Below, piece after piece: positions 1,808-63,150 of a DNA stretch of 64,000 bases. Numbering within the stretch: position 1 is the stretch's first letter; each line of letters starts with the position of its first letter. The DNA comes from Eledone cirrhosa (taxonomy: Eukaryota): NCBI GenBank assembly GCA_964016885.1, contig OZ024740.1, positions 51,770,001 to 51,834,000 on the forward strand, written 5' to 3'. The translations under genes were made by a program, and so were the position numbers. Below the pieces are notes generated by a model, which saw only the letters and a program-made list of their open reading frames with translations, did no database searches and was not told the DNA's origin.

Positions 1808-1932
1808 TCCAGACGGCCGTTTCGTTATAAGATTTCTACAATTTGGGATAAATAATTTCCAGCTTATGTAGAAACTTGTATATAATCCGTAGTTTTATAC
1901 ACAAGCGGGCACTTATAAACTCATCAGTGAAT
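1808..1932 (-). ncRNA. Hammerhead ribozyme motif with ~80-nt branched insertion in stem II
   Basis: Minus strand: ttca-CTGATGA-gtttataag...cttataac-GAAA-cggccg-TC-tgga. Stem III is palindromic (ACGGCCGT) and the cleavage triplet is GUC. Confidence 0.65.
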
Positions 1933-2318: not shown

Positions 2319-2407
2319 GGATGATCCATACATGTATTTATTATGTTTTAATATCTCTGTGTGTGCTTTGGTTGTGTATACATATGGTTATTCTTTTAAT
2401 ATCCAAT
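2156..2407. repeat. ~90-bp inverted repeat flanking a (TA)n tract; the right arm is fused to the start of the satellite
   Basis: Bases 2156-2243 match the reverse complement of 2316-2407. Confidence 0.8.
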
Positions 2408-2494
2408 GCTCGGTGTGTTTGTAAACAAACATCCCGTATTAAGCCGTAGTGTCCAGCAAGCATCGTTGCTCGTTTATTCAACACTGACAAAGGA

Positions 2495-2537
2495 ACTCTG
2501 TACTAGTTTCAAGCTTATTAGCTATCGTCAGCAACGT
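2495..2537 (-). ncRNA. Type I hammerhead ribozyme of the first satellite unit (repeated in every unit)
   Basis: Minus strand: acgttg-CTGACGA-t-agct-aata-agct-t-GAAA-ctag-TA-cagagt. Many later units have cagcgt, which gives a fully paired stem I. Confidence 0.85.
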
Positions 2538-2611
2538 ATACGTTCCTGCCAGATGGTAGAACGTCTGAAAGTATAAACTTTCCTTATGCACATTATCGGC
2601 TGAGCAGCCTA

Positions 2612-2619
2612 ATTTGCAT
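2612..2619 (-). promoter_or_regulatory. Octamer motif ATGCAAAT (present in each satellite unit)
   Basis: ATTTGCAT on the plus strand in essentially all units and ATGCAAAT in the dispersed copy near 40016. Function is untested. Confidence 0.4.
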
Positions 2620-5600
2620 ATCGAGTGAGTTAATCGGCCGGGGTACCGAAAACGATAAACGGAAAAAATGAAACAAAATTTCATTTCCCACTCTTAGTAC
2701 GGCTGTTACTTAAATATAAGTATGTATACGTACATACATATATGTATACAGACGTACAGTAGTATGTATATATATATACATACATGCACACATATATATA
2801 TGTACGTATGGATTCACCGAGCATTTATTACAATGCTCGGTGTGTTTGTAAACAAACATCCCGTATTAAGCCGTAGTGTCCAGCAACCATCGTTGCTCGT
2901 TTATTCAACACTGACAAAGGAACTCTGTACTAGTTTCAAGCTTATTAGCTATCGTCAGCAACGTATACCTTCTTGCCAGATGGTAGAACGTCTGTAAGTA
3001 TAAACTTTCCTGATGCACATTAACGGCTCAGCAGCCTAATTTGCATATCGAGTGAGTCAATCGGCCGGGGTACCGAAAACGATAAACGGAAAAAATGAAA
3101 CGAAATTTGATTTCCCACTCTTAGTACGGCTGTTAGTTAAATATAAGTATGTATACAGACGTACTGTAGTATGTATATATATATACATACATGCACACAT
3201 ATATATATGTACGTATGGATTCACCGAGCATTTATTACAATGCTCGGTGTGTTTGTAAACAAACATCCCGTATTAAGCCGTAGTGTCCAGCAACCATCGC
3301 TGCTCGTTTATTCAACACTGACAAAGGAACTCTGTACTAGTTTCAAGCTTATTAGCTATCGTCAGCAACGTATACCTTCCTGCCAGATGGTAGAACGTCT
3401 GAAAGTATAAACTTTCCTTATGCACATTAACGGCTGAGCAGCCTAATTTGCATATCGAGTGAGTTAATCGGCCGGGGTACCGAAAACGATAAACGGAAAA
3501 AATGAAACGAAATTTCATTTCCCACTCTTAGTACAGCTGTTACTTAAATATAAGTATGTATACGTACATACATATATGTATACAGACGTACAGTAGTATG
3601 TATATATATATATACATACATGCACACATATATATATGTACGTATGGATTCACCGAACATTTATTACAATGCTCGGTGTGTTTGTAAACAAACATCCCGT
3701 ATTAAGCCGTAGTGTCCAGCAAGCATCGTTGCTCGTTTATTCAACACTGACAAAGGAACTCTGTACTAGTTTCAAGCTTATTAGCTATCGTCAGCAAAGT
3801 ATACCTTCCTGCCAGATGGTAGAACGTCTGAAAGTATAAACTTTCCTTATGCACATTAACGGCTGAGCAGCCTAATTTGCATATCGAGTGAGTTAATCAG
3901 CCGGGGTACCGAAAACGATAAACGGAAAAAATGAAACGAAATTTCATTTCCCACTCTTAGTACGGATGTTACTTAAATATAAGTATGTATACGGACATAC
4001 ATATATGTATACAGACGTACAGTAGTATGTATATATATATACATACATGCACACATATATATATGTACGTATGGATTCATCGAACATTTATTACAATGCT
4101 CGGTGTGTTTGTAAACAAACATCCCGTATTAAGCCGTAGTGTCCAGCAACCATCGCTGCTCGTTTATTCAACACTGACAAAGGAACTCTGTACTAGTTTC
4201 AAGCTTATTAGCTATCGTCAGCAACGTATACCTTCCTGCCAGATGGTAGAACGGCTGAAAGTATAAACTTTCCTTATGCACATTAACGGCTGAGCAGCCT
4301 AATTTGCATATCGAGTGAGTTAATCGGCCGGGGTGCCGGAAACGATAAACGGAAAAAATGAAACGAAATTTCATTTCCCACTCTTAGTACAGCTGTTACT
4401 TAAATATAAGTATGTATACGTACATACATATATGTATACAGACGTACAGTAGTATGTATATATATATACATACATGCACACATATATATATGTACGTATG
4501 GATTCACCGAACATTTATTACAATGCTCGGTGTGTTTGTAAACAAACATCCCGTATTAAGCCGTAGTGTCCAGCAAGCATCGTTGCTCGTTTATTCAACA
4601 CTGACAAAGGAACTCTGTACTAGTTTCAAGCTTATTAGCTATCGTCAGCAAATTATACCTTCCTGCCAGATGGTAGAACGTCTGAAAGTATAAACTTTCC
4701 TTATGCACATTAACGGGTCAGCAGCCTAATTTGCATATCGAGTGAGTTAATCAGCCGGGGTACCGAAAACGATAAACGGAAAAAATGAAACGAAATTTCA
4801 TTTCCCACTCTTAGTACGGATGTTACTTAAATATAAGTATGTATACGGACATACATATATGTATACAGACGTAAAGTAGTATGTATATATATATACATAC
4901 ATGCACACATATATATATGTACGTATGGATTCATCGAACATTTATTACAATGCTCGGTGTGTTTGTAAACAAACATCCCGTATTAAGCTGTAGTGTCCAG
5001 CAACCATAGTTGCTCGTTTATACAACACTGACAAAGGAACGCTGTACTAGTTTCAAGCTTATTAGCTATCGTCAGCAACGTATACCTTCCTGCCAGATGG
5101 TTGAACGTCTGAAAGTATAAACTTTCCTTATGCACATTAACGGCTGAACAGCTTAATTTGCATATTGAGTGAGTTAATCGGCCGGGGTACCGAAAACGAT
5201 AAACGGAAAAAAATGAATCGAAATTTCATTTCCCACTCTTAGTACGGCTGTTACTTAAATATAAGTATGTATACGTACATACGTATATGTATACAGACGT
5301 ACAGTAGTATGTATATGTATATACATACATGCACACATATGTATAATTACTTATGGATTCACCGAGCATTTATTACAATGCTCGGTGTGTTTGTAAACAA
5401 ACATCCCGTATTAAGCCGTAGTGTCCAGCAACCATAGTTGCTCGTTTATTCAACACTGACAAAGGAACGCTGTACTAGTTTCAAGCTTGTTAGCTATCGT
5501 CAGCAACTTATACCTTCCAGCCAGGTGGTTGAACGTCTGAAAGTATAAACTTTCCTTATGCACATTAACGGCTGAACAGCCTAATTTGCATATCGAGTGG

Positions 5601-8600
5601 GTCAATCGGCCTGGGTACCGAAACGATAAACGCAAAAAATGAAACGAAATTTCATTTCCCACTCTTAGTACGGCTATTACTTAAATATAAGTATGTATAC
5701 GTACATACATATATGTATACAGACGTACAGTAGTATGTATATATATATACATACATGCACACGTATATATATGTACGTATGGATTCACCGAACATTTATT
5801 ACAATGCTCGGTGTGTTTGTAAACAAACATCCCGTATTAAGCCGTAGTCTCCAGCAACCATCGTTGCTCGTTTATACAACACTGACAAAGGAACGCTGTA
5901 CTAGTTTCAAGCTTATTAGCTATCGTCAGCAACGTATACCTTCCTGCCAGATGGTTGAACGTCTGAAAGTATAAACTTTCCTTATGCACATTAGCGGCTG
6001 AACAGCTTAATTTGCATATCGAGTGAGTTAATCGACCGGGGTACCGAAAACGATAAACGGAAAAAAATGAAACGAAATTTCATTTCCCACTATTAGTACG
6101 GCTGTTACTTAAATATAAGTATGTATACGTACATACATATATGTATACAGACGTACAGTAGTATGTATATATATATACATACCTGCACACATATATATAT
6201 GTACGTATGGATTCACCGAGCATTTATTACAATGCTCGGTGTGTTTGTAAACAAACATCCCGTATTAAGCCGTAGTGTCCAGCAACCATCGTTGCTCGTT
6301 TATTCAACACTGACAAAGGAATTCTGTACTAGTTTCAAGCTTATTAGCTATCGTCAGCAACGTATACCTTCTTGCCAGATGGTAGAACGTCTGAAAGTAT
6401 AAACTTTCCTGATGCACATTAACGGCTCAGAAGCCTAATTTGCATATCGAGTGAGTTAATCGGCCAGGGTACCGAAAACGATAAACGGAAAAAGTGAAAC
6501 GAAATTTGATTTCCCACTCTTAGTACGGCTGTTACTTAAATATAAGTATGTATACAGAAGTACTGTAGTATGTATATATATATACATACATGCACACATA
6601 TATATATGTACGTATGGATTCACCGAACATTTATTACAATGCTCGGTGTGTTTGTAAACAAACATCCCGTATTAAGCCGTAGTGTCCAGCAACCATCGTT
6701 GCTCATTTATTCAACACTGACAAAGGAACTCTGTACTAGTTTCAAGCTTATTAGCTATCGTCAGTAACGTATACCTTCCTGCCAGATGGTAGAACGTCTG
6801 AAAGTATAAACTTTCCTTATGAACATTAACGGCTGAGCAGCCTAATTTGCATATCGAGTTAGTTAATCGGCCAGGGCACCGAAAACGATAAACGGCAAAA
6901 ATGAAACGAAATTTCATTTCCCACTCTTAGTACGGCTGTTACTTAAATATAAGTATGTATACGGACATACATATATGTATACAGACGTACAGTAGTATGT
7001 ATATATATATACATACATGCACACATATATATATGTACGTATGGATTCACCGAACATTTATTACAATGCTCGGTGTGTTTGTAAACAAACATCCCGTATT
7101 AAGCCGTAGTGTCCAGCAACCATCGTTGATCGTTTATTCAACACTGACAAAGGAACGCTGTACTAGTTTCAAGCTTATTAGCTATCGTCAGCAACGTATA
7201 TTTTCCTGCCAGATGGTTGAACGTCTGAAAGTATAAACTTTCCTTATGCACATTAACGGCTGAACAGCCTAATTTGCATATCGAGTGAGTTAATCGGCCG
7301 CCGTACCGAAAACGATAAACAGAAAAAATGAAACGAAATTTCATTTCCCACTCTTAGTACGGCTGTTACTTAAATATAAGTATGTATACGTACATACATA
7401 TATGTATACAGACGTACAGTAGCATGTATATATATATAGATACATGCACACAAATATATTTATGTACGTATGGATTCACCGAGCATTTATTACAATGCTC
7501 AGTGTGTTTGTAAACAAACATCCCGTATTAAGCCGTAGTTTCCAGCAACCATCGTTGCTCGTTTATTCAACACTGACAAAAGAAAGCTGTACCAGTTTCA
7601 AGCTTATTAGCTATCGTGAGCAACGTATACCTTCCTGCCAGATGGTTGAACGTCTGAAAGTATAAACTTTCCTCATGCACATTAACGGCTGAACAGCCTA
7701 ATTTGCATATCGAGTGAGTTAATCGGCCGCCGTTCCGAAAACGATAAACGGAAAAAATGAAAAGAAATTTCATTTCCCACTCTTAGTACGGCTGTTACTT
7801 AAATATAAGTATGTATACTTACATACATATATGTATACAGACGTACAGTTGTATGTATATATATATATACATACATGTACACACATATATATATATGTAC
7901 GTATGGATTCACAGAGCATTTATCACAATGCTCTGTGGGTTTGTAAACAAACATCCCGTATTAAGCCGTAGTGTCCAGCAACCATCGTTATCGTTTATTC
8001 AACACTGACAAAGGAAAGCTGTACTAGTTTCAAGCTTATTAGCTATCGTCAGCAACGTATACTTTGCTGCCAGATGGTTGAACGTCTGAAAGTATAAACT
8101 TTCCTTATGCACATTAACGGCTGAATAGCCTAATTTGCATATCGAGTGAGTTAATCGGCCGGGGTACCGAAAACGATAAACGGAAAAAAATGAAACGAAA
8201 TTTCATTTCCCACTCTTAGTACGGCTGTTACTAAAATATAACTATGTATACGTACATACATATATGTATACAGACGTACAGTAGTATGTATATATATATA
8301 CATACATGCACACATATATATATATATGTACGTATGGATTCATCGAACATTTATTACAATGCTCGGTGTGTTTGTAAACAAACATCCCGTATTAAGCCGT
8401 AGTGTCCAGCAACCATCTTTGCTCGTTTATTCAACACTGACAAAGGAACGCTGTACTAGTTTCAAGCTTATTAGCTATCGTCAGCAATGTATACCTTCCT
8501 GCCAGATGGTTGAACGTCTGAAAGTATAAACTTTCCTTATGCACATTAACGGCTGAACAGCCTAATTTGCATATCGAGTGAGTTAATCGGCCGCCGTACC

Positions 8601-11600
8601 GAAAACGATAAACGGAAAAAATGAAACGAAATTTCATTTCCCACTCTAAGTATGTATACGTACATACATATATGTATACAGACGTACAGTACCATGTATA
8701 TATATATACATACATGCACACAAATATATTTATGTACGTATGGATTCACCGAGCATTTATTACAATGCTCAGTGTGTTTGTAAACAAACATCCCGTATTA
8801 AGCCGTAGTTTCCAGCAACCATCGTTGTTCGTTTATTCAACACTGACAAAAGAAAGCTGTACTAGTTTCAAGCTTATTAGCTATCGTCAGCAACGTATAC
8901 CTTTCTGCCAGATGGTTGAATGTCTGAAAGTATAAACTTTCCTTATGCACATTAACGGATGAACAGCTTAATTTGCATATCGAGTTTGTTAATCGGCCGG
9001 GGTACCGAAACGATAAACGCAAAAAATGAAACGAAATCTCATTTCCCACTCTTAGTACGGCTGTTACTTAAATATAAGTATGTATACGTACATACATATA
9101 TGTATACAGACGTAGAGTAGTATGTATATATATATATACATACATGCACACATATATATATGTACGTATGGATTCACCGAACATTCATTACAATGCTCGC
9201 TGTGTTTGTAAACAAACATCCCGTATTAAGCCGTAGTGTCCAGCAACCATCGTTGCTCGTTAATTCAACACTGACAAAGGAACTCTGTACTAGTTTCAAG
9301 CTTATTAGCTATCGTCAGCAACGTATACCTTCCTGCCAGATGGTTGAACGTCTGAAAGTATAAACTTTCCTTATGTACATTAACGGATGAACAGCTTAAT
9401 TTGCATATCGAGTTTTTAAATCGGCCGGGGTACCGAAAACGATAAATGGAAAAAATGAAACGAAATTTCATTTGCCACTCTTAGTACGGCTGTTACTTAA
9501 ATATAAGTATGTATACGTACATACATATATGTATACAGACGTACAGTAGTATGTATATATATATATATACATGCACACATATATATATGTACGTATGGAT
9601 TCACAGAACATTTATTACAATGTTCGGTGTGTTTGTAAACAAACATCCCGTATTAAGCCGTAGTGTCCAGCAACCATCTTTGCTCGTTTTTTCAACACTG
9701 ACAAAGGAACTCTGTACTAGTTTCAAGATTATTAGCTATCGTCAGCAACGTATACCTTCCTGCCAGATGGTAGAACGTCTGAAAGTATAAACTTTCCTTA
9801 TGCACATTAACGGCTGAGCAGCCTAATTTGCATATCGAGTTTGTTAATCGGCCGGGGTACCGAAAACGATAAATGAACAAAAATGAAACGAAATTTCATT
9901 TCCCACTCTTAGTACGGCTGTTACTTAAATATAACTATGTATACGTACATACATATATGTATACAGACGTACAGTAGTATGTATATATATATACATACAT
10001 GCACACATATATATATATGTACGTATGGATTCATCGAACATTTATTACAATGCTCGGTGTGTTTGTAAACAAACATCCCGTATTAAGCCGTAGTGTCCAG
10101 CAACCATCGTTGCTCGTTTATTCAACACTGACAAAGGAACGCTGTACTAGTTTCAAGCTTATTAGCTATCGTCAGCAACGTATACCTTCCTGCCAGATGG
10201 TTGAACGTCTGAAAGTATAAACTTTCCTTATGCACATTAACGGCTGAACAGCCTAATTTGCATATCGAGTGAGTTAATCGGCCGCCGTACCGAAAACGAT
10301 AAACGGAAAAAATGAAACGAAATTTCATTTCCCACTCTAAGTATGTATACGTACATACATATATGTATACAGACGTACAGTACCATGTATATATATATAC
10401 ATACATGCACACAAGTATATTTATGTACGTATGGATTCACCGAGCATTTATTACAATGCTCAGTGTGTTTGTAAACAAACATCCCGTATTAAGCCGTAGT
10501 TTCCAGCAACCATCGTTGTTCGTTTATTCAACACTGACAAAAGAAAGCTTTACTAGTTTCAAGCTTATTAGCTATCGTGAGCAACGTATACCTTCCTGCC
10601 AGATGGTTGAAAGTCTGAAAGTATAAACTTTCCTTATGCACATTAACGGCTGAACAGCCTAATTTGCATGTCGAGTTTGTTAATCGGCCGGGGTACCGAA
10701 AACGATAAGCGGAAAAAATGAAACGAAATTTCATTTCCCACTCTTAGTACGGCTGTTACTTAAATATAAGTATGTATACGTACATACATATATGTATACA
10801 GACGTACAGTTGTATGTATATATATATATACATACATGTACACATATATATATATGTACGTATGGATTCACAGAGCATTTATTACAATGCTCGGTGTGTT
10901 TGTAAACAAACATCCCGTATTAAGCCGTAGTGTCCAGCAACCATCGTTGCTCGTTTATTCAACACTGACAAAGGAACGCTGTACTAGTTTCAAGCTTATT
11001 AGCTATCGTCAGCAACGTATACCTTTCTGCCAGATGGTTGAATGTCTGAAAGTATAAACTTTCCTTATGCACATTAACGGCTGAACAGCCTAATTTGCAT
11101 ATCGAGTGAGTTAATCGGCCGCCGTACCGAAAACGATAAACTGAAAAAATGAAACGAAATTTCATTTGCCACTCTTAGTACGGCTGTTACTTAAATATAA
11201 GTATGTATACGTACATACATATATGTATACAGACGTATAGTAGTATGTATATATATATACATACATGCACACATATATATATATGTACGTATGGATTCAC
11301 CGAACATTTATTACAATGATCGGTGTGTTTGTAAACAAACATCCCGTATTAAGCCGTAGTGTCCAGCAACCATCGTTGCTCGTTTATTCAACACTGACAA
11401 AGGAACGCTGTACTAGTTTCAAGCTTATTAGCTATCGTCAGCAACGTATACCTTTCTGCCAGATGGTTGAATGTCTGAAAGTATAAACTTTCCTTATGCA
11501 CATTAACGGCTGAACAGCCTAATTTGCATATCGAGTGAGTTAATCGGCCGCCGTACCGAAAACGATAAACGGAAAAAATGAAACGAAATTTCATTTCCCA

Positions 11601-14600
11601 CTCTTAGTACGGCTGTTACTTAAATATAAGTATGTATACGTACATACATATATGTATACAGACGTACAGTAGCATGTATATATATATAGATACATGCACA
11701 CAAATATATTTATGTACGTATGGATTCACCGAGCATTTATTACAATGCTCAGTGTGTTTGTAAACAAATATCCCGTATTAAGCCGTAGTTTCCAGCAACC
11801 ATCGTTGCTCGTTTATTCAACACTGACAAAAGAAAGCTGTACTAGTTTCAAGCTTATTAGCTATCGTGAGCAACGTATACCTTCCTGCCAGATGGTTGAA
11901 AGTCTGAAAGTATAAACTTTCCTTATGCACATTAACGGCTGAACAGCCTAATTTGCATATCGAGTGAGTTAATCGGCCGGGGTACCGAAAACGATAAATG
12001 GAAAAACTGAAACGAAATTTCATTTCCCACTCTTAGTACGGCTGTTACTTAAATATAAGTATGTATACGTACATACATATATGTATACAGACGTACAGTT
12101 GTATGTATATATATATATACATACATGTACACACATATATATATGTACGTATGGATTCACAGAGCATTTATTACAATGCTCGGTGTGTTTGTAAACAAAC
12201 ATCCCGTATTAAGCCGTAGTGTCCAGCAACCATCGTTATCGTTTATTCAACACTGACAAAGGAAAGCTGTACTAGTTTCAAGCCTATTAGCTATCGTCAG
12301 CAACGTATACCTTCCTGCCAGATGGTTGAACGTCTGAAAGTATAAACTTTCCTCATGCACATTAACGGATGAACAGCCTAATTTGCATATCGAGTGAGTT
12401 AATCGGCCGCCGTACCGAAAACGATAAACGGAAAAAATGAAAAGAAATTTCATTTCCCACTCTTAGTACGGCTGTTACTTAAATATAAGTATGTATACTT
12501 ACATACATATATGTATACAGACGTACAGTTGTATGTATATATATATATACATACATGTACACACATATATATATATGTACGTATGGATTCACAGAGCATT
12601 TATCACAATGCTCGGTGGGTTTGTAAACAAACATCCCGTATTAAGCCGTAGTGTCCAGCAACCATCGTTATCGTTTATTCAACACTGACAAAGGAAAGCT
12701 GTACTAGTTTCAAGCTTATTAGCTATCGTCAGCAACGTATACTTTGCTGCCAGATGGTTGAACGTCTGAAAGTATAAACTTTCCTTATGCACATTAACGG
12801 CTGAACAGCCTAATTTGCATATCGAGTGAGTTAATCGGCCGCCGTACCGAAAACGATAAACGGAAAAAATGAAAAGAAATTTCATTTCCCACTCTTAGTA
12901 CGGCTGTTACTTAAATATAAGTATGTATACGTACATACATATATGTATACAGACGTACAGTACCATGTATATATATATAGATACATGCACACAAATATAT
13001 TTATGTACGTATGGATTCACCGAGCATTTATTACAATGCTCAGTGTGTTTGTAAACAAACATCCAGTATTAAGCCGTAGTTTCCAGCAACCATCGTTGCT
13101 CGTTTATTCAACACTGACAAAAGAAAGCTGTACTAGTTTCAAGCTTATTAGCTATCGTGAGCAACGTATACCTTCCTGCCAGATGGTTGAAAGTCTGAAA
13201 GTATAAACTTTCCTTATGCACATTAACGGCTGAACAGCCTAATTTGCATATCGAGTGAGTTAATCGGCCGGGGTACCGAAAACGATAAATGGAAAAACTG
13301 AAACGAAATTTCATTTCCCACTCTTAGTACGGCTGTTACTTAAATATAAGTATGTATACGTACATACATATATGTATACAGACGTATAGTAGTATGTATA
13401 TATATATACATACATGCACACATATATATATGTACGTATGGATTCACCGAACATTTATTACAATGATCGGTGTGTTTGTAAACAAACATCCCGTATTAAG
13501 CCGTAGTGTCCAGCAACCATAGTTGCTCGTTTATTCAACACTGACAAAGGAACGCTGTACTAGTTTCAAGCTTATTAGCTATCGTCAGCAACGTATACCT
13601 TTCTGCCAGATGGTTGAATGTCTGAAAGTATAAACTTTCCTTATGCACATTAACGGATGAACAGCTTAATTTGCATATCGAGTTTTTAAATCGGCCGGGG
13701 TACCGAAAACGATAAATGGAAAAAATGAAACGAAATTTCATTTGCCACTCTTAGTACGGCTGTTACTTAAATATAAGTATGTATACGTACATACATATAT
13801 GTATACAGACGTACAGTAGTATGTATATATATATATATACATGCACACATATATATATGTACGTATGGATTCACAGAACATTTATTACAATGTTCGGTGT
13901 GTTTGTAAACAAACATCCCGTATTAAGCCGTAGTGTCCAGCAACCATCTTTGCTCGTTTATTCAACACTGACAAAGGAACTCTGTACTAGTTTCAAGATT
14001 ATTAGCTATCGTCAGCAACGTATACCTTCCTGCCAGATGGTAGAACGTCTGAAAGTATAAACTTTCCTTATGCACATTAACGGCTGAGCAGCCTAATTTG
14101 CATATCGAGTTTGTTAATCGGCCGGGGTACCGAAAACGATAAACGAACAAAAATGAAACGAAATTTCATTTCCCACTCTTAGTACGGCTGTTACTTAAAT
14201 ATAACTATGTATACGTACATACATATATGTATACAGACGTACAGTAGTATGTATATATATATACATACATGCACACATATATATATATGTACGTATGGAT
14301 TCATCGAACATTTATTACAATGCTCGGTGTGTTTGTAAACAAACATCCCGTATTAAGCCGTAGTGTCCAGCAACCATCGTTGCTCGTTTATTCAACACTG
14401 ACAAAGGAACACTGTACTAGTTTCAAGCTTATTAGCTATCGTCAGCAACGTATACCTTCCTGCCAGATGGTTGAACGTCTGAAAGTATAAACTTTCCTTA
14501 TGCACATTAACGGCTGAGCAGCCTAATTTGCATATCGATTGAGTTAATCGGCCGGGGTACCGAAAACGATGAACGGAAAAAATGAAACGAAATTTCATTT

Positions 14601-17600
14601 CCCACTCTTAGTACGGCTGTTACTTAAATATAAGTATGTATACGTACATACATATATGTATACAGACGTACAGTACCATGTATATATATATACATACATG
14701 TACACATATATATATGTACGTATGGATTCACAGATCATTTATTACAATGCTCGCTGTGTTTGTAAACAAACATCCCGTATTAAGCCGTAGTATCCAGCAA
14801 CCATCGTTGCTCGTTTATTCAACACTGACAAAGGAACTCTGTACTAGTTTCAAGCTTATTAGCTATCGTCAGCAACGTATACCTTCCTGCCAGATGGTTG
14901 AACGTCTGAAAGTATAAACTTTCCTTATGCACATTAACGGCTGAACAGCCTAATTTGCATATCGAGTGAGTTAATCGGCCGCCGTACCGAAAACGATAAA
15001 CGGAAAAAATGAAACGAAATTTCATTTCCCACTCTTAGTACGGCTGTTACTTAAATATAAGTATGTATACGTACATACATATATGTATACAGACGTAGAG
15101 TAGTATGTATATATATATATACATACATGCATACATATATATATGTACGTATGGATTCACCGAACATTCATTACAATGCTCGGTGTGTTTGTAAACAAAC
15201 ATCCCGTATTAAGCCGTAGTGTCCAGCAACCATCGTTGCTCGTTAATTCAACACTGACAAAGGAACTCTGTACTAGTTTCAAGCTTATTAGCTATCGTCA
15301 GCAACGTATACCTTCCTGCCAGATGGTTGAACGTCTGAAAGTATAAACTTTCCTTATGCACATTAACGGCTGAGCAGCCTAATTTGCATATCGATTGAGT
15401 TAATCGGCCGGGGTACCGAAAACGATAAACGGAAAAAATGAAAGGAAATTTCATTTCCCACTCTTAGTACGGCTGTTACTTAAATATAAGTATGTATACG
15501 TACATACATATATTTATACAGACGTAGAGTAGTATGTATATATATATACATACATGCACACATATATATATGTACGTATGGATTCACCGAACATTTATTA
15601 CAATGCTCGGTGTGTTTGTAAACAAACATCCCGTATTAAGCCGTAGTGTCCAGCAACCATCGTTGCTCGTTTATTCAACACTGACAAAAGAACGCTGTAC
15701 TAGTTTGAAGCTTATTAGCTATCGTGAGCAACGTCTACCTTCCTGCCAGATGGTTGAACGTCTGAAAGTATAAACTTTCCTGATGCACATTAACGGCTGA
15801 ACAGCCTAATTTGCATATCGAGTGAGTTAATCGGCCGGGGTACCGAAAACGATAAACGGAAAAAATGAAACCAAATTTGAATTCCCACTCTTAGTACAGC
15901 TGTTACTTAAATATAAGTATGTATACGTACATACATATATGTATACAGACGTATAGTAGTATGTATATATATATACATACATGCACACATATATATATAT
16001 GTACGTATGGATTCATCGAACATTTATTACAATGCTCGGTGTGTTTGTAAACAAACATCCCGTATTAAGCCGTAGTGTCCAGCAACCATCGTTACTCGTT
16101 TATTCAACACTGACAAAGGAACGCTGTACTAGTTTCACGCTTATTAGCTATCGTCAGCAACGTATATTTTCCTGCTAGATGTTTGAACATCTGAAAGTAT
16201 AAACTTTCCTTATGCACATTAACGACTGAACAGCCTAATTTGCATATCGAGTGAATTAATCGGCCGGGGTACCGAGAACGATAAACGGAAAAAAATGAAA
16301 CGAAATTTCATTTCCCACTCTTAGTACGGCTGTTACTTAAATATAAGTATGTATACGTACATACATATATGTATACAGACGTACAGTAGTATGTATATAT
16401 ATATACTTACATGCACACATATATATATGTACGTATGGATTCACCGAACATTTATTACAATGCTCGGTATGTTTGTAAACAAACATCCCGTATTAAGCCG
16501 TAGTGTCCAGCAACCATCGTTGCTCGTTTATTCAACACTGACAAAGGAAAGCTGTACTAGTTTCAAGCTTATTAGCTATCGTCAGCAACGTATACTTTCC
16601 TGCCAGATGGTTGAACGTCTGAAAGTATAAACTTTCCTTATGCACATTCACGGCTGAACAGCCTAATTTGCATATCGAGTGAGTTAATCGGCCGGGGTAC
16701 CGAAAACGATAAACGGAAAAAATGAAACGAAATTCCATTTTCCACTCTTAGTACGGCTGTTACTTAAATATAAGTATGTATACGTACATACATATATGTA
16801 TACAGACGTAGAGTAGTATGTATATATATATACATACATGCACACATATATATATGTACATATGGATTCACCAAACATTTATTACAATGCTCGTTGTGTT
16901 TGTAAACAAACATCCCGTATTAAGCCGTAGTGTCCAGCAACCATCGTTGCTAGTTTATTCAACGCTGACAAAAGAACGCTGTACTAGTTTCAAGCTTATT
17001 AGCTATCGTCAGCAACGTATACCTTCCTGCCAGATGGTTGAATGTCTGAAAGTATAAACTTTCCTTATGCACATTAACGGCTGAACAGCCTAATTTGCAT
17101 ATCGAGTGAGTTAATCGGCCGGGGTACCGAAAACGATAAACGGAAAAAATGAAAGGAAATTTCATTTCCCACTCTTAGTACGGCTGTTACTTAAATATAA
17201 GTATGTATACGTACATACATATATGTATACAGACGTACAGTACCATGTATATATATATACATACATGTACACATATATATATGTACGTATGGATTCACAG
17301 ATCATTTATTACAATGCTCGCTGTGTTTGTAAACAAACATCCCGTATTAAGCCGTAGTGTCCAGCAACCATCGTTGCTCGTTTATTCAACACTGACAAAA
17401 GAACGCTGTACTAGTTTGAAGCTTATTAGCTATCGTGAGCAACGTCTACCTTCCTGCCAGATGGTTGAACGTCTGAAAGTATAAACTTTCCTTATGCACA
17501 TTAACGGCTGAACAGCCTAATTTGCATATCGAGTGAGTTAATCGGCCGGGGTACCGAAAACGATAAACGGAAAAAATGAAACCAAATTTGAATTCCCACT

Positions 17601-20600
17601 CTTAGTACAGCTGTTACTTAAATATAAGTATGTATACGTACATACATATATGTATACAGACGTAGAGTAGTATGTATATATATATACATACATGCACACA
17701 TATATATATATGTACGTATGGATTCATCGAACATTTATTACAATGCTCGGTGTGTTTGTAAACAAACATCCCGTATTAAGCCGTAGTGTCCAGCAACCAT
17801 CGTTACTCGTTTATTCAACACTGACAAAGGAACGCTGTACTAGTTTCACGCTTATTAGCTATCGTCAGCAACGTATATTTTCCTGCTAGATGTTTGAACA
17901 TCTGAAAGTATAAACTTTCCTTATGCACATTAACGACTGAACAGCCTAATTTGCATATCGAGTGAATTAATCGGCCGGGGTACCGAGAACGATAAACGGA
18001 AAAAAATGAAACGAAATTTCATTTCCCACTCTTAGTACGGCTGTTACTTAAATATAAGTATGTATACGTACATACATATATGTATACAGACGTACAGTAG
18101 TATGTATATATATATACTTACATGCACACATATATATATGTACGTATGGATTCACCGAACATTTATTACAATGCTCGGTATGTTTGTAAACAAACATCCC
18201 GTATTAAGCCGTAGTGTCCAGCAACCATCGTTGCTCGTTTATTCAACACTGACAAAGGAAAGCTGTACTAGTTTCAAGCTTATTAGCTATCGTCAGCAAC
18301 GTATACTTTCCTGCCAGATGGTTGAACGTCTGAAAGTATAAACTTTCCTTATGCACATTCACGGCTGAACAGCCTAATTTGCATATCGAGTGAGTTAATC
18401 GGCCGGGGTACCGAAAACGATAAACGGAAAAAAATGAAACGAAATTCCATTTTCCACTCTTAGTACGGCTGTTACTTAAATATAAGTATGTATACGTACA
18501 TACATATATGTATACAGACGTAGAGTAGTATGTATATATATATACATACATGCACACATATATATATGTACATATGGATTCACCAAACATTTATTACAAT
18601 GCTCGTTGTGTTTGTAAACAAACATCCCGTATTAAGCCGTAGTGTCCAGCAACCATCGTTGCTAGTTTATTCAACGCTGACAAAAGAACGCTGTACTAGT
18701 TTCAAGCTTATTAGCTATCGTCAGCAACGTATACCTTCCTGCCAGATGGTTGAATGTCTTAAAGTATAAACTTTCCTTATGCACATTAACGGCTGAACAG
18801 CCTAATTTGCATATCGAGTGAGTTAATCGGCCGGGGTACCGAAAACGATATACGGAAAAAATGAAAGGAAATTTCATTTCCCACTCTTAGTACGGCTGTT
18901 ACTTAAATATAAGTATGTATACGTACATACATATATTTATACAGACGTAGAGTAGTATGTATATATATATACATACATGCACACATATATATATGTACGT
19001 ATGGATTCACCGAACATTTATTACAATGCTCGGTGTGTTTGTAAACAAACATCCCGTATTAAGCCGTAGTGTCCAGCAACCATCGTTGCTCGTTTATTCA
19101 ACACTGACAAAAGAACGCTGTACTAGTTTGAAGCTTATTAGCTATCGTGAGCAACGTCTACCTTCCTGCCAGATGGTTGAACGTCTGAAAGTATAAACTT
19201 TCCTTATGCACATTAACGGCTGAACAGCCTAATTTGCATATCGAGTGAGTTAATCGGCCGGGGTACCGAAAACGATAAACGGAAAAAAATGAAACCAAAT
19301 TTGAATTCCCACTCTTAGTACAGCTGTTACTTAAATATAAGTATGTATACGTACATACATATATGTATACAGACGTACAGTAGTATGTATATATATATAC
19401 ATACATGCACACATATATAATTATGTACGTATGGATTCATCGAACATTTATTACAATGCTCGGTGTGTTTGTAAACAAACATCCCGTATTAAGCCGTAGT
19501 GTCCAGCAGCCATCGTTGCTCGTTTATACAACACTGACAAAGGAACGCTGTACTAGTTTCAAGCTTATTAGCTATCGTCAGCAACGTATATTTTCCTGCT
19601 AGATGTTTGAACATCTGAAAGTATAAACTTTCCTTATGCACATTAACGACTGAACAGCCTAATTTGCATATCGAGTGAATTAATCGGCCGGGGTACCGAG
19701 AACGATAAACGGAAAAAAATGAAACGAAATTTCATTTCCCACTCTTAGTACGGCTGTTACTTAAATATAAGTATGTATACGTACATACATATATGTATAC
19801 AGACGTACAGTAGTATGTATATATATATACTTACATGCACACATATATATATGTATGTATGGATTCACCGAACATTTATTACAATGCTCGGTATGTTTGT
19901 GAACAAACATCCCGTATTAAGCCGTAGTGTCCAGCAACCATCGTTGCTCGTTTATTCAACACTGACAAAGGAAAGCTGTACTAGTTTCAAGCTTATTAGC
20001 TATCGTCAGCAACGTATACTTTCCTGCCAGATGGTTGAACGTCTGAAAGTATAAACTTTCCTTATGCACATTCACGGCTGAACAGCCTAATTTGCATATC
20101 GAGTGAGTTAATCGGACGGGGTACCGAAAACGATAAACGGAAAAAAATGAAACGAAATTCCATTTCCCACTCTTAGTACGGCTGTTACTTAAATATAAGT
20201 ATGTATACGTACATACATATATGTATACAGACGTAGAGTAGTATGTATATATATATACATACATGCACACATATATATATGTACATATGGATTCACCAAA
20301 CATTTATTACAATGCTCGTTGTGTTTGTAAACAAACATCCCGTATTAAGCCGTAGTGTCCAGCAACCATCGTTGCTAGTTTATTCAACGCTGACAAAAGA
20401 ACGCTGTACTAGTTTCAAGCTTATTAGCTATCGTCAGCAACGTATACCTTCCTGCCAGATGGTTGAATGTCTGAAAGTATAAACTTTCCTTATGCACATT
20501 AACGGCTGAACAGCCTAATTTGCATATCGAGTGAGTTAATCGGCCGGGGTACCGAAAACGATATACGGAAAAAATGAAAGGAAATTTCATTTCCCACTCT

Positions 20601-23600
20601 TAGTACGGCTGTTACTTAAATATAAGTATGTATACGTACATACATATATTTATACAGACGTAGAGTAGTATGTATATATATATACATACATGCACACATA
20701 TATATATGTACGTATGGATTCACCGAACATTTATTACAATGCTCGGTGTGTTTGTAAACAAACATCCCGTATTAAGCCGTAGTGTCCAGCAACCATCGTT
20801 GCTCGTTTATTCAACACTGACAAAAGAACGCTGTACTAGTTTGAAGCTTATTAGCTATCGTGAGCAACGTCTACCTTCCTGCCAGATGGTTGAACGTCTG
20901 AAAGTATAAACTTTCCTTATGCACATTAACGGCTGAACAGCCTAATTTGCATATCGAGTGAGTTAATCGGCCGGGGTACCGAAAACGATAAACGGAAAAA
21001 AATGAAACCAAATTTGAATTCCCACTCTTAGTACAGCTGTTACTTAAATATAAGTATGTATACGTACATACATATATGTATACAGACGTACAGTAGTATG
21101 TATATATATATACATACATGCACACATATATAATTATGTACGTATGGATTCATCGAACATTTATTACAATGCTCGGTGTGTTTGTAAACAAACATCCCGT
21201 ATTAAGCCGTAGTGTCCAGCAGCCATCGTTGCTCGTTTATACAACACTGACAAAGGAACGCTGTACTAGTTTCAAGCTTATTAGCTATCGTCAGCAACGT
21301 ATATTTTCCTGCTAGATGTTTGAACATCTGAAAGTATAAACTTTCCTTATGCACATTAACGACTGAACAGCCTAATTTGCATATCGAGTGAATTAATCGG
21401 CCGGGGTACCGAGAACGATAAACGGAAAAAAATGAAACGAAATTTCATTTCCCACTCTTAGTACGGCTGTTACTTAAATATAAGTATGTATACGTACATA
21501 CATATATGTATACAGACGTACAGTAGTATGTATATATATATACTTACATGCACACATATATATATGTACGTATGGATTCACCGAACATTTATTACAATGC
21601 TCGGTATGTTTGTAAACAAACATCCCGTATTAAGCCGTAGTGTCCAGCAACCATCGTTGCTCGTTTATTCAACACTGACAAAGGAAAGCTGTACTAGTTT
21701 CAAGCTTATTAGCTATCGTCAGCAACGTATACTTTCCTGCCAGATGGTTGAACGTCTGAAAGTATAAACTTTCCTTATGCACATTCACGGCTGAACAGCC
21801 TAATTTGCATATCGAGTGAGTTAATCGGCCGGGGTACCGAAAACGATAAACGGAAAAAAATGAAACGAAATTCCATTTTCCACTCTTAGTACGGCTGTTA
21901 CTTAAATATAAGTATGTATACGTACATACATATATGTATACAGACGTAGAGTAGTATGTATATATATATACATACATGCACACATATATATATGTACATA
22001 TGGATTCACCAAACATTTATTACAATGCTCGTTGTGTTTGTAAACAAACATCCCGTATTAAGCCGTAGTGTCCAGCAACCATCGTTGCTAGTTTATTCAA
22101 CGCTGACAAAAGAACGCTGTACTAGTTTCAAGCTTATTAGCTATCGTCAGCAACGTATACCTTCCTGCCAGATGGTTGAATGTCTGAAAGTATAAACTTT
22201 CCTTATGCACATTAACGGCTGAACAGCCTAATTTGCATATCGAGTGAGTTAATCGGCCGGGGTACCGAAAACGATATACGGAAAAAATGAAAGGAAATTT
22301 CATTTCCCACTCTTAGTACGGCTGTTACTTAAATATAAGTATGTATACGTACATACATATATTTATACAGACGTAGAGTAGTATGTATATATATATACAT
22401 ACATGCACACATATATATATGTACGTATGGATTCACCGAACATTTATTACAATGCTCGGTGTGTTTGTAAACAAACATCCCGTATTAAGCCGTAGTGTCC
22501 AGCAACCATCGTTGCTCGTTTATTCAACACTGACAAAAGAACGCTGTACTAGTTTGAAGCTTATTAGCTATCGTGAGCAACGTCTACCTTCCTGCCAGAT
22601 GGTTGAACGTCTGAAAGTATAAACTTTCCTTATGCACATTAACGGCTGAACAGCCTAATTTGCATATCGAGTGAGTTAATCGGCCGGGGTACCGAAAACG
22701 ATAAACGGAAAAAAATGAAACCAAATTTGAATTCCCACTCTTAGTACAGCTGTTACTTAAATATAAGTATGTATACGTACATACATATATGTATACAGAC
22801 GTACAGTAGTATGTATATATATATACATACATGCACACATATATAATTATGTACGTATGGATTCATCGAACATTTATTACAATGCTCGGTGTGTTTGTAA
22901 ACAAACATCCCGTATTAAGCCGTAGTGTCCAGCAGCCATCGTTGCTCGTTTATACAACACTGACAAAGGAACGCTGTACTAGTTTCAAGCTTATTAGCTA
23001 TCGTCAGCAACGTATATTTTCCTGCTAGATGTTTGAACATCTGAAAGTATAAACTTTCCTTATGCACATTAACGACTGAACAGCCTAATTTGCATATCGA
23101 GTGAATTAATCGGCCGGGGTACCGAGAACGATAAACGGAAAAAAATGAAACGAAATTTCATTTCCCACTCTTAGTACGGCTGTTACTTAAATATAAGTAT
23201 GTATACGTACATACATATATGTATACAGACGTACAGTAGTATGTATATATATATACTTACATGCACACATATATATATGTATGTATGGATTCACCGAACA
23301 TTTATTACAATGCTCGGTATGTTTGTGAACAAACATCCCGTATTAAGCCGTAGTGTCCAGCAACCATCGTTGCTCGTTTATTCAACACTGACAAAGGAAA
23401 GCTGTACTAGTTTCAAGCTTATTAGCTATCGTCAGCAACGTATACTTTCCTGCCAGATGGTTGAACGTCTGAAAGTATAAACTTTCCTTATGCACATTCA
23501 CGGCTGAACAGCCTAATTTGCATATCGAGTGAGTTAATCGGACGGGGTACCGAAAACGATAAACGGAAAAAAATGAAACGAAATTCCATTTCCCACTCTT

Positions 23601-23789
23601 AGTACGGCTGTTACTTAAATATAAGTATGTATACGTACATACATATATGTATACAGACGTAGAGTAGTATGTATATATATATACATACATGCACACATAT
23701 ATATATGTACATATGGATTCACCGAACATTTATTACAATGCTCGGTGTGTTTGTAAACAAACATCCCGTATTAAGCCGTATATATATAA

Positions 23790-25110
23790 AAATGATTGGA
23801 TATATATGAAAATACATAAGTATTAAAAATGGTTGGATATATAAGAAAATACATAAGTATTAAGCATGTTTAGAATATGTACGGGTAATGGAAATTCATA
23901 TCATTCAAAAGAACCTTTCAGAAATTTTACAAAAATTTCCGTGTGTTTCGAAGGAAATTTTTAGAATTTTTCAAAATATTTTCATAAAAGAATTTCTGGA
24001 GGGTGCGATAATATAAGTATTGGTTTTAAGGAATAAATTAAAATTATAATTAATAAGTGTACTTTATATATTTAGGAAGGTTAGAATCTATATAGTCTGA
24101 GGGAAGAGATTATAGGTGTTTGGATCGAGAAAAAGGTTATGTAAGGAAGAATGAACATATATTACATTTTATATATATATCTAAAAGTTTACAAGAACTA
24201 AACAAATTATTCCGCAAATTAACAGAGTTCTTAGATTTTAGTATAAAGAATATTTCCTCTACACAAAGACTACAAAATTTGGATACACCTGTGTAGCATG
24301 GTGCTTTGGAGACAATTTTCCAAAATAAAGAGTATTTTATATTCTTGGATTTTAAATTCCATAATAAGTTGGATAGAGAAGTTGAAGATTTCTTGTTAAT
24401 ATTCGTAAAGGAACATTTATGGTTATTGAAACGAGATTTGAAGTCTGTCGAAGTAGAGCCGACATAGTTGAAGGAATTATCTTTGGTTTTGACATTACAA
24501 TTGTATACTATATTTTTAACTAAACAGTTATTATTTAGAGGACAGTTAGATTTATTTCTACAATTACATTTATCGGGATTTATATTATTGGGAGCCGTAA
24601 CATTATATTGGATATTGCTAGAGGTATTAATGCTATTCTGGTTAAGTTTTAAGTTTCTATTATTAATTCTATTAATATGCTGGGCTAAATTCATAGTGGT
24701 AGAGTATGATAATTTAATAGTATGTCTATTAAAGATTGAGTAATACCTGTGCGTCTTAGGAAAACAGCTATCTAAAGCTTTAAAAAATAGTTTAGCTATT
24801 GGAGTTTTAATACTTAATGAGAAAGGGGGAGCGAACCATAATATATTTCTAGTTCTATTTCTTCTTTTGATTTTCGAGTTATTGCAAGGTTTCCTATTAT
24901 AATTATAATTATAGTTATGGTTAATTGGCACATCCTTATTGTCAATATATTTAATTTCATTATTATAGCCTATTCTACTTAAAGCATTGTTATAATATTG
25001 TGCCTTATCTTCAAATATATTTTTATTCGTTGAGATTCTAGAGATACGTTGCTGCACAGAATTTACAATAGTGTTTTTAACGGATCTCGGGTGATTGTAA
25101 TTAAAGATAG
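23790..25110 (-). mobile_element. 5'-truncated Penelope-like element (RT C-terminus, Cys linker, GIY-YIG)
   Basis: ORF 24137-25135 contains NHPRSVKNTIVNSVQQRISRIS, WFAPPFS, CNCRNKSNCPLNNNC and NIVYNC...YVGSTSTDFKSRFNNHK. Confidence 0.9.
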
Positions 25111-25507
25111 GAAGGAAGAAATAGAATGGATGCATGAGAATAGGTCACAAAGATTAAAATATGCTCGTCAGATCTCAACCGCCTGCAGTTTCAACGATTT
25201 GATGAGATTACTGCGAAGAATAGGAGGCTCGTAATGGAGAGATAAATATCTTCATTCATATAATGTTTGTGTTGGGACAGGTTAGATATTAATCTGTGGT
25301 AGAAGGCTAAGATAGCTATTAGAGGTACGAAGAATTTAACTCGAATATGGAGTTTTGAGACGTAAGTGTATTAGAATTCGTAGGAAAACGGAAAAACTCG
25401 GCGTAAAACGGAAAAACGCGGCGTAAGGAAGCTCTTAAAACAGCTAAATGCCGTTGAAGCGGCGTCGGGTAAAATATTACCTCGAAGGACAGAGATGTAT
25501 AATACAC

Positions 25508-25555
<48 letters not shown>

Positions 25556-25599
25556 CGAAACATCCGACTCACGGGGAGGGGCGGAGTTACAGATAAGCA

Positions 25600-26447
25600 C
25601 CTTTCAGTTGTAGCTTGCATGCTCCGCTGGATGTGCAATAGTAATATACGTGAACGGCAAAGCATAAACGAACTAAGGAAAAAATTAGAAATAAGAGGGA
25701 TCAGATGTTGTTTACTCGAGAGAAGGCTACGTTGGTACGGTCACGTGATGCGCATGAAAGACGACAGCTGTATAACAAAGTGCAGGGCAATAAAGATAGA
25801 CGGTAGCCACGGAGTAGGCAGACCCAGAAAAACATGGGACGAGCTGATAAATTCCGACCTCACACGCTTACACCTCTCCAAGACAATGTCACTGGACCGA
25901 GACCTTTGGCGGTACTCAGTAATAGAGAAGACCCGCCTTACCTAAATACAAAGTAAAAACCTACTACAGTCAGTAGGCACCTCTATCAAAACACACCCCC
26001 GTCCCACCACCTCCACCCCACCCACACCGCCCCTTTCAATGTAAAGTTATGTTGGTCCCACAACATCCAGGCCGAAACAAATGAGATCGTGTAGGTGTCA
26101 CGACAAAAAACACACAGTCCACGCTGTAAATGTGGCCGTGTAGGCAACACGGTAAAAACCTCCCAGCCCCACACTGTAAATGTGGTTGGTGTTAGGAAGG
26201 GCATCCAGCTGTAGAAAACCCGCCAGACAGTCCACGCTGTAATGTGGCCGTGTAGGCAACACGGTAAAAACCTCCCAGCCCCACACTGTAAATGTGGTTG
26301 GTGTTAGGAAGGGCATCCAACTGTAGAAAACCCGCCAGACAGTCCTATGCGAGCAAGACAACCACTCTTGCCTCAAGTGGGAAAACCCCCGTCCAAACCC
26401 ATGCAAGCGTGGAACACGGACGCTAAACCTGATGATGATGATGATGA
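25600..26447 (+). mobile_element. 5'-truncated RTE-clade LINE 3' end with internally duplicated 3' UTR and (GAT)n tail
   Basis: Encodes MLRWMC...RRLRWYGHVMR...GRPRKTW. A ~115-bp tandem duplication lies at about 26113-26345. Confidence 0.85.
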
Positions 26448-32399: not shown

Positions 32400-33590
32400 T
32401 TGGGAGGGTCATGTTGCCAATAAGAAACACACGCACCAGTTGCTTTCACTCCAATTTATTATAAATTAAATTTATAAATTTCCGGTTGGTTGGTTGGTTG
32501 GTTCCATAACCGGACGGTTGTTTATATATTGTCAAAGTTCTTTCGTCACACATTCTGTGACCTCTTCAGTGACTGGGGATTCTTTTCTTTGTTTTGTGCC
32601 TCTCCTTTGTTCTGTCCTACGCCATCTTGTTTTTGTGTGTGTTGTGTGCTTAGTTTGCGCATGTGTTACATCCGGGTGTCTGTATGTGTTTTTATTTGTT
32701 TATGTATTTGTTTATTTACATGTTACTGGTTGGTTGTTTGTTCTATATGTGTGTGTGTTTTCATTTTGTCCTTAATTGTAAATTGTGATGTTGCTATTCC
32801 ATTCATGTTTTCTATTTAATTTTGGTTGGAGTTCATTTATGTTTATTGCCTCTGTGATTTGTCTAAACATTGCGTCTTTTCTGTGTGTAGATTTTATTTT
32901 TATTTCTATGTTCTATTTTAGCATGTTGGTGGAGTATTGATGATTCTTTTTTATCTTGAAGCTCTCGCCAGTGTTCATTTAACCGTTCTCTTATACTACG
33001 AGCTGTCTCACCTATGTACACTATATTCTTATCTTTACATTGTCCTTCAGTACATCTTATGCTACATACTACATTTCTAGTTTTACAGTTAAAATGGGGG
33101 CTTAGTTTACAGATGATGCATTTCTTATCTATACAGGGAGGTCTTTGAAAAGGGTATGTATTACTAATAAGTGTTTTTATGGAGGTACCTGGTCTTTCTA
33201 CTATCTTAATATTAAGTTTAAGTTTATCTAGGGCCCTTCTAAATTTATAAGATAATTCACCTCTAAGGGTTGTATTCATGAACATTACACTCTGGTATTT
33301 ATTGCTATCATACCCTGAGTTTATTCTATTAACCTTATTCCTAGTTCTTTCTATTCTATTCCAAAATTTGCTCCTATACAAGGGGCAGGTCCCATTTGTA
33401 TCATTATTTACCATTTTTTCCCATTTGGTTCTGGCTCCTCTATACACTCTGATTCTATCTCTCTGATTGTAACCAGAGAACTGCATACGGTGGATGAAGT
33501 GTTGTATGTGTGTCTCTAGTTCTTTGGGGTTGCACATGCGGGTCGCAACTGGTGCGTGTGTTTCTTATTGGCAACATGACCCTCCCAAAG
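32400..33590 (-). mobile_element. 5'-truncated Penelope-like element with inverted terminal segment
   Basis: ORF 32863-33537 contains GIY-YIG (VVCSIRC...YIGETARSIRERLNEH). Bases 32397-32444 are inverted at 33545-33590. Confidence 0.88.
32531..32573 (-). ncRNA. Minimal hammerhead ribozyme motif in Penelope-like 3' UTR
   Basis: gtca-CTGAAGA-g-gtcaca-gaatg-tgtgac-GAAA-gaac-TT-tgac; same strand as the ORF. Confidence 0.7.
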
Positions 33591-38354: not shown

Positions 38355-38708
<354 letters not shown>

Positions 38709-39695: not shown

Positions 39696-39729
<34 letters not shown>

Positions 39730-39735
<6 letters not shown>

Positions 39736-40401: not shown

Positions 40402-40431
<30 letters not shown>

Positions 40432-41103: not shown

Positions 41104-41105
<2 letters not shown>

Positions 41106-63133: not shown

Positions 63134-63150
63134 TATATATATATATATAT

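Follow-up and report, generated by a model that had tools for sequence, protein, structure and literature searches.

The subject of this report is a head-to-tail array on the minus strand at positions 2404 to 23780 of a 64,000-nucleotide stretch of Eledone cirrhosa DNA (contig OZ024740.1, positions 51,770,001 to 51,834,000; hereafter, the window). The array is composed of 50 units of 406 to 433 bp, each of which contains a hammerhead ribozyme motif. The retrozyme family of this array is designated family A, and the minus strand is taken as its sense strand. We consider it probable (roughly 0.6) that family A is a nonautonomous hammerhead retroelement, that is, a non-long terminal repeat (non-LTR) retrozyme, that is moved by a (TA)n-targeting Penelope-like element (PLE), most likely of the Hydra clade. 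A more tentative reading is that the footprints of the family record the work of a PLE enzyme on a circular RNA produced by the ribozyme, with copying that begins at two internal sites and continues round the circle. The array itself is best read as a locally expanded and partly decayed product of family A and not as its main source.

The evidence that carries this reading comes from the ends of other family A copies. Set 1 comprised 59 loci (53 consecutive exact-core loci on contig C1, the 5 best BLAST hits, and the copy at 39.7 kb) with 94 segments of at least 100 bp; set 2 comprised 43 additional loci that were selected with a pattern lying outside the hammerhead, with 72 segments, of which 2 edge-cut segments were dropped to leave 70 ends. 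The 3' ends fell at two fixed sites, about 214 to 219 and 273 to 275 nt past the cut, in 66 of 94 cases in set 1 and 50 of 70 in set 2, and (TA)n followed the 3' end in 71 of 94 and 55 of 70 cases, respectively. The 5' ends were scattered along the full length of the unit and did not cluster at the cut (in set 2, 2 of 70 lay within 5 nt of it), and the coverage of the copies was smooth across the cut site. Segments longer than one unit made up 50 of 94 in set 1 and 39 of 72 in set 2. Across both sets, 51 inverted pairs were head to head and 2 were tail to tail. All 26 head-to-head pairs that were classed on both arms used one site each, and none used the same site twice; in the remaining pairs, one arm was unclassed or at an edge (24 pairs) or both arms were unclassed (1 pair). 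A dispersed insertion with this anatomy lies in the window at 39717 to 40402, with its hammerhead at 40096 to 40126 on the plus strand. Its minus arm (39717 to 39957) and plus arm (39958 to 40402) stand head to head; both end in (TA)n, with one arm at each of the two end sites.

These features match what is reported for PLEs. Their anatomy is described as 5' truncation, an inverted 5' arm, and a tail on one end only, and Hydra-clade PLEs are described as inserting into (TA)n (10.1101/2021.04.23.441226). In vitro, the PLE tail is reported to lie between two internal reverse transcription start sites, and both target strands are reported to be cut and extended (PMC11167929). Judged from the ends of the copies, the 3'-end pattern of family A is the PLE tail signature. 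The original prediction had suggested mobilization by Penelope-like machinery, and the two fixed 3' ends, the (TA)n, and the inverted arms back that suggestion. In the array, the tail corresponds to the segment at 2655 to 2714 (minus strand), which lies between the two 3'-end sites of other copies and is present in nearly every array unit; its borders would be the reverse transcription start sites. In the mechanism that we propose, a protein presumably encoded by a PLE would nick a TA microsatellite, and reverse transcription would start inside the RNA at two sites about 55 to 60 nt apart, one per target strand. As the copies show, copying passes the cut site unbroken, often extends beyond one unit, and leaves 5'-truncated monomers, short tandems, and inverted arms. 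A point to be set against this reading is the small size of the sample, which covers about 190 nonarray units of more than 6,000, mostly from contig C1.

Family A is widespread in the genome. A 34-nt core had 5,653 exact matches genome-wide, and the reversed control had none. This count is a lower bound, because the commonest sequence accounted for 25 of some 90 complete hammerheads when loci were sampled by a pattern that lies outside the motif. The forms of the family range from monomers to a second array of at least 103 units of 419 to 420 bp, located on contig C1 at about 96.995 to 97.039 Mb (L226 to L230); this number is also a lower bound, because the second array was observed without its 5' end. 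In that array, 66 of 103 cores are intact, blocks of units are repeated, and the sequence stops at the 273 site before (TA)n, the canonical 3' end. With its dispersed monomers and multimers, family A has the sequence-level properties of the retrozyme-type tandem repeat with a type I hammerhead that had been proposed for the window. Short family A arrays at L100, L101, L174, and L243 show a periodicity of two units or more with near-identical repeats, suggesting early DNA-level duplication. Dimeric circles were considered as the source of the 2-unit periodicity and were not supported; the 5'-most partial unit of L101 lacks both alternating variant sets, and later DNA duplication therefore fits.

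Analysis of the window array with Tandem Repeats Finder returned positions 2404 to 23780, a period of 427, 50.1 copies, and 94% matches, reproducing the coordinates, the copy number of about 50, and the period that had been reported for it. Forty-four of the 50 units are distinct, and the mean pairwise difference is 19.5 substitutions. The GC content of the units is 35 to 38%, thus below 50%, and their length falls within the retrozyme range of 150 to 450 bp. Neither a coding frame nor an LTR pair was found in a search that did not extend to a tRNA primer site: the longest ATG frame in the array is 115 amino acids, and the other copies vary in where their 5' ends lie, and their flanks are unrelated. 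One cut-to-cut monomer of 427 nt, at 2501 to 2927 on the minus strand, is a predicted linear or circular RNA. No RNA data set was among the six runs listed for the family, a result that bears on expression in neither direction, and contigs of unknown kind from four of these runs gave variants and no start, end, strand, or circle. Low-depth pieces in two other organisms were not counted toward host range. Three monomers were folded, and 68 to 70% of their nucleotides were predicted to be paired, with z scores of −5.9 to −9.6. The unit contains a long TA-rich hairpin at about 2715 to 2810; when this hairpin was removed, the sense strand still folded better than shuffled sequences (z, −4.5), and the antisense strand did not (z, −1.5).

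A type I hammerhead motif was found on the minus strand in all 50 units. It consists of a 6-bp stem I, CUGACGA, a 4-bp stem II closed by U.U, GAAA, a palindromic stem III, and a GUA triplet. In unit 1, the motif with its 6-bp stem I arms occupies 2495 to 2537 (core, 2531 to 2501), and it recurs every ~428 bp as far as 23405 to 23435. The original prediction had stated that every unit reads one given string; the motif is indeed present in 50 of 50 units, and the literal string is present in 21. All core bases are intact in 41 units, the first 12 of which are consecutive, and the core mutations in the other 9 units are all G5>C, with G12>C in addition in 5 of the 9. An intact core and palindrome with both stems perfect was found in only 16 of 50 units. 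The cut that had been predicted between plus-strand positions 2501 and 2500 was placed correctly, A17 of the GUA triplet being position 2501. The 4-bp stem II, the palindromic stem III, and the extended stem I were likewise as described, and the extended stem forms in the minimum free energy (MFE) fold of a unit with a perfect stem I. The hammerhead fold of that unit lies 1.4 kcal/mol from the MFE, and in units with stem I mismatches it lies ~8 kcal/mol above the MFE (2 of 3 folded units).

The build of the ribozyme is weak in two respects. Stem III, which is fully palindromic, has 2 bp and a 2-nt loop, and positions 10.1 and 11.1 are U.U instead of the usual G-C, a pair that is called highly conserved in hammerheads (PMC4209133). 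U.U at the base of stem II is also reported for an axolotl retrozyme that cleaves, does so better as a dimer, and forms circles (PMC7229834). A search of the whole window against Rfam gave no family that reached its gathering score, and on 2404 to 3700 at an E value of ≤10, no hammerhead was among the matches listed. MicroRNA, small nucleolar RNA, and other unrelated models matched in that segment, nearly all on the TA-rich hairpin, and were rejected as composition effects. When a 141-nt piece was used, the whole of Hammerhead_HH9 was aligned with a score of 20.3 bits (E = 0.005); its gathering score is 52. The Rfam scoring that the original prediction had proposed thus gave an end-to-end alignment that did not reach the gathering score of any family of clan CL00010.

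The missing Rfam match at gathering score, together with the satellite-like behavior of the array itself, would suit plain satellite DNA that carries a chance hammerhead-like motif and has no RNA stage. We regard this as extremely improbable. In a permissive type I scan of both strands, the motif matched none of 5,000 dinucleotide shuffles of one unit, and family A copies, dispersed in their thousands, bear polar footprints of retrotransposition on the strand of the hammerhead. For the family as a whole, the fixed position of the 3' ends and the scatter of the 5' ends refute plain satellite DNA.

Conservation of the ribozyme was assessed in a sample of 52 loci picked outside the motif, with duplicate and array loci dropped. 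The core differed from the consensus at 24 of 1,167 letters (2.1%) and the rest at 687 of 23,066 (3.0%; P = 0.075). The excess core conservation that had been expected among other copies was therefore present in weak form. Single changes gave further indications. At one CpG, 296 genome-wide matches carry a tolerated change at the free position N7, and 119 carry a core-breaking change at G8. Neutral CpG decay should give similar numbers at these two positions. At one stem I pair, U-G was found in 105 loci, A-U in 8, and G-U in 3. The better-than-shuffled folding of the sense strand once the TA-rich hairpin is removed also points to selection on the RNA. Several observations weigh against selection on the ribozyme. 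The marginal difference between core and rest is one, and the per-copy rates inside the array (2.3% for the core versus 2.8% for the rest) are another. The same stem I pair also occurs in mispaired states (U-A in 8 loci, A-G in 3, and others in single loci). Because the copies are not independent, the skew between N7 and G8 (296:119) may reflect one amplified variant; one or two founder events could account for this skew and, separately, for the stem I changes. Taken together, these data weakly suggest that the family A ribozyme is under selection.

The ribozyme bears on the question of which RNA is copied. Under the reading with a circular template, tandem copies would be transcribed, the weak hammerheads would cut after GUA, probably as dimers formed through the palindromic stem III, and the monomers would be ligated into circles. 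Units of one insertion were more alike than units of different loci at 61 of 66 loci. When the first pair per locus was scored, the two units belonged to the same subfamily in 23 of 24 cases for tandem pairs and in 24 of 27 for arm pairs, versus an expected fraction of 0.56. Such same-subfamily units fit a single circle and also fit a homogeneous linear multimer. Cleaved linear monomers were considered as the template and were not supported, since the 5' ends show no pile-up at the cut; they are unlikely templates because the copies cross the cut without a break.

The same family could also be mobilized by a PLE from an uncleaved linear multimeric transcript, with no need for circles; the hammerhead would then be a relic of a PLE terminal repeat, slow or dependent on protein. 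This is possible, if rather unlikely in our estimation, and it is likened to nonautonomous Chlamys elements, for which head-to-tail insertions are described in a clade mostly without hammerheads (10.1101/2021.04.23.441226). A linear multimer fits all family A insertion footprints equally well. The weak core conservation and the weak build of the ribozyme, with its 2-bp stem III and 2-nt loop and its U.U at 10.1/11.1, also suit it, as do the Chlamys tandems of that report. The following observations count against a single circle. Within-locus divergence between units is still 3.3% for tandem and 4.1% for inverted units, versus 5.5% between loci, and 25 rare variants are fixed in a locus, versus 439 singletons. 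L084 contains a third in-register unit from the other subfamily, a heterotypic tandem that suits a linear multimer; neither it nor the within-locus differences are predicted by a single circle. Eight of nine predicted Xenopus retrozyme dimers are reported to have failed to cleave (10.64898/2026.07.22.740005). An Anolis PLE is reported to insert in vitro without hammerhead cleavage, so that cleavage is dispensable for insertion in that system (PMC11167929).

Other features argue for a circular template over the linear one. With its extended stem I, the motif is a complete type I hammerhead as opposed to a minimal PLE motif, and the U.U at the base of stem II is shared with the axolotl retrozyme that cleaves and circularizes (PMC7229834). 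The CpG skew, the double changes in stem I, and the same-subfamily units favor selection for cleavage and a single-unit template. In our analysis, circles would be favored over a linear multimer at about two to one, mainly because the coral, mussel, and axolotl families are reported to behave in this way (PMC7229834).

The history of the array was examined in a tree of 342 units, in which its 50 units form one clade with a support value of 0.955. The array units share four diagnostic alleles that are rare elsewhere; no other segment among 20 loci examined had more than one of them, and none of the sampled outside units fell inside the clade. The closest dispersed relatives differ from the array consensus by 1.6 to 2.6%. 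The distal 20 units (15174 to 23735, minus strand) form five rounds of a 4-unit higher-order repeat, with 0.7% divergence at lag 4 and about 5% at other lags, and every fourth hammerhead in it carries two core mutations. The 5' end of the array sits in a short TA run of a PLE 3' untranslated region (UTR), the continuation of which is missing beyond the other side of the array. The 3' end lies at unit position about 97, where a 4-bp overlap (2404 to 2407) joins it to an inverted arm of another element, family B. We infer that the array arose by one insertion, DNA-level expansion, and later deletion; DNA-level growth is indicated by the single clade, the 4-unit higher-order repeat, and the lack of sampled offspring. 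One insertion would have been duplicated in place to 50 units, with dead ribozymes and the higher-order repeat acquired on the way, and would have lost its native 3' end, probably by deletion.

This history bears on the proposal that the 21-kb array acts as a master locus, still active, from which family A circular RNA and new insertions would come. The 41 intact cores, which are adjacent, would suit dimeric cleavage, the array lies downstream of a same-strand PLE fragment that could give read-through, and its closest dispersed relatives are near to its consensus. We nevertheless consider such a role improbable, since the clade of the array includes no sampled outside unit, amplification of the higher-order repeat multiplied dead ribozymes as well, and the array lacks its native 3' end. 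The G5C change has 48 matches genome-wide, 9 of them in the array, and the one outside copy with both core mutations (L225, on contig C2) was rejected as a descendant of the array, as it lacks all four diagnostic alleles. The original prediction's view of the array as a special or producing locus did not hold: it is one of thousands of copies, a larger array exists, its clade is closed, and its dead ribozymes have been amplified.

Two Hydra-type PLE fragments lie next to the array. The first, at 23781 to 25144 (minus strand), contains an endonuclease end and a 3' UTR; the second, at 27258 to 29188 (plus strand), is frameshifted and contains a reverse transcriptase (RT) with a DKT motif and a GIY-YIG end. 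The CxCx5C linker is present in 24137 to 25144 and 42076 to 43404 and DKT in 27258 to 29188, and both motifs are given for Hydra elements (10.1101/2021.04.23.441226). The closest named homolog of the neighboring RT is labeled Octopus vulgaris and is 80% identical over 43% of the query. PLE copies in the genome number 42,003 first-look candidates, and relatives of the PLE at 27258 to 29188 with open frames of 758 amino acids are common elsewhere in it. The Hydra-type PLE family of L207 to L216 looks recently active; it has many open frames of 758 amino acids, a hammerhead just upstream of its open reading frame (ORF), a long (TA/TG) microsatellite inside its 3' region, and a 69-nt tail. The intact element stops before (TA)n, either 22 or 91 nt downstream of the cut in its own hammerhead (10 and 4 of 39 motif hits, respectively), and one end of each site, one per arm, was found in L210, L211, L212, and L215. 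Its hammerhead and that of family A have in common U.U at 10.1/11.1, the CUAG palindrome in stem III, and GUA.

Two results speak against the pairing of family A with these elements. The tail is about 55 to 60 nt in family A versus 69 nt in the Hydra element, and BLAST comparison of the unit with 32 Hydra-type loci, 9 flanking-PLE loci, and the rest of the window, a small part of the PLE copies in the genome, found no unit-PLE similarity outside TA runs. The neighboring Penelope-like RTs had been put forward as the movers of the array, a suggestion that gained no support, since no sequence similarity between the unit and the PLE fragments was found. A Hydra-type partner for family A is likely at the level of class, and the relatives of the PLE at 27258 to 29188 form a candidate class. 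The possibility that the unit is a terminal repeat of the flanking PLE was rejected; other copies of that PLE run into a different UTR with a different hammerhead.

Family A resembles the metazoan non-LTR retrozymes reported from Acropora, Mytilus, and axolotl (PMC7229834), which have a type I hammerhead in low-GC noncoding tandem units of 150 to 450 bp, thousands of copies, forms from dimers to long arrays, and self-paired predicted RNA. It differs from them as a new sequence family, for which cleavage and circles are predicted. It is like HHR_Amex2 of axolotl and newt satellite 2 in its weak stem III, which in those ribozymes goes with better dimer cleavage, and like Amex2 in the U.U at the stem II base (PMC7229834), and is set apart by its 2-bp stem III with a 2-nt loop, its GUA triplet, and a unit of 427 nt and not 330 to 350 nt. 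The satellite pDo500 of cave crickets also has an embedded hammerhead, and this ribozyme is reported as significantly more conserved than the rest (PMC2837043), whereas the excess in family A is marginal within one genome. With Hydra-clade PLEs, as published, family A shares (TA)n targets, 5' truncation, an inverted 5' arm, two fixed 3' ends, and a hammerhead upstream of the ends; unlike them, it has no ORF, its unit itself repeats head to tail, and it shows no similarity to a sampled PLE terminus. Its tail of about 55 to 60 nt compares with 30 to 40 nt in published PLEs (10.1101/2021.04.23.441226; PMC11167929). Nonautonomous Chlamys elements such as MRC1 are described as generally resembling their autonomous partner at the 3' end and as belonging to a clade mostly without hammerheads (10.1101/2021.04.23.441226), and family A is unlike them in both respects.

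No cephalopod or octopus retrozyme was found in the literature searched, a search that left aside papers' supplements and the repeat databases Repbase and Dfam, and no report of a PLE two-site tail or (TA)n targeting on a retrozyme was found in the same literature, again with supplements left aside. By the properties of its units and copies, family A is a new non-LTR retrozyme family, and the class, the long arrays, and the PLE link are already published. Long arrays on record include 62-mers in coral (PMC7229834) and arrays of 180 to 300 units (10.64898/2026.07.22.740005). PLEs are named as likely retrozyme movers in PMC7229834, 10.64898/2026.07.22.740005, and PMC7761336. The last of these, a 2020 review, states that metazoan retrozymes show no motif pointing to the mobilizing retrotransposon, and the 2026 preprint (10.64898/2026.07.22.740005) builds the PLE case from co-occurrence and phylogeny, with the mechanism left open.

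Further elements were observed around the array. Family B is represented in the window at 1618 to 2407, with a hammerhead at 1812 to 1927 (minus strand) and an inverted arm at 2306 to 2407 that joins the 3' end of the array through the 4-bp overlap. This family (also L059 to L067) is noncoding, with a unit of roughly 770 bp and head-to-tail partial tandems; it has a type I hammerhead with an 8-nt palindromic stem III and an unusually long stem II of 97 nt, a fixed 3' end before (TA)n, and 1,847 first-look candidates. Families A and B have only TA runs in common and are otherwise unrelated. Outside the array, type I hammerhead-like motifs of at least five additional kinds occur (1325, 26596, 30684, 32535, 38262, 39171, and 44789), several of them near PLE fragments or TA runs, and the region is dense in ribozyme-bearing mobile elements. 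A tandem pair of hammerheads 468 bp apart at L212:8141-8640, with a palindromic stem III as in family A and a different stem II, is probably a further retrozyme family. A short element with inverted arms between TA runs lies at 38441 to 38578, 38980 to 39102, and 41105 to 41200 and recurs in several other loci. PLE fragments of another type, at 32863 to 33564 and 36712 to 37737 (minus strand), have a CxxxCxxC linker, and the former has a GIY-YIG match; from the motifs given in 10.1101/2021.04.23.441226, they are possibly Neptune-like. RT fragments of long interspersed nuclear element-type non-LTR elements are located at 25448 to 25945, 48244 to 48717, 54239 to 55261 (with an RVT_1 match), and 63112 to 63999.

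The array is ordinary for its class, and it shows how retrozyme insertions become satellites with higher-order repeats. The useful part is the PLE footprint across family A, in which a PLE two-site tail and TA targeting are found with intact Hydra-type frames in the same genome. With this footprint, two questions become testable: the identity of the enzyme that mobilizes retrozymes, and the form of the template, circular or linear multimeric. If PLE copying round a circle is true, family A would provide direct evidence for a rolling-circle, PLE-driven retrozyme cycle, for which co-occurrence and phylogeny have so far been the grounds; it would also give an in vitro reconstitution its start sites, its target, and a candidate class of enzyme.

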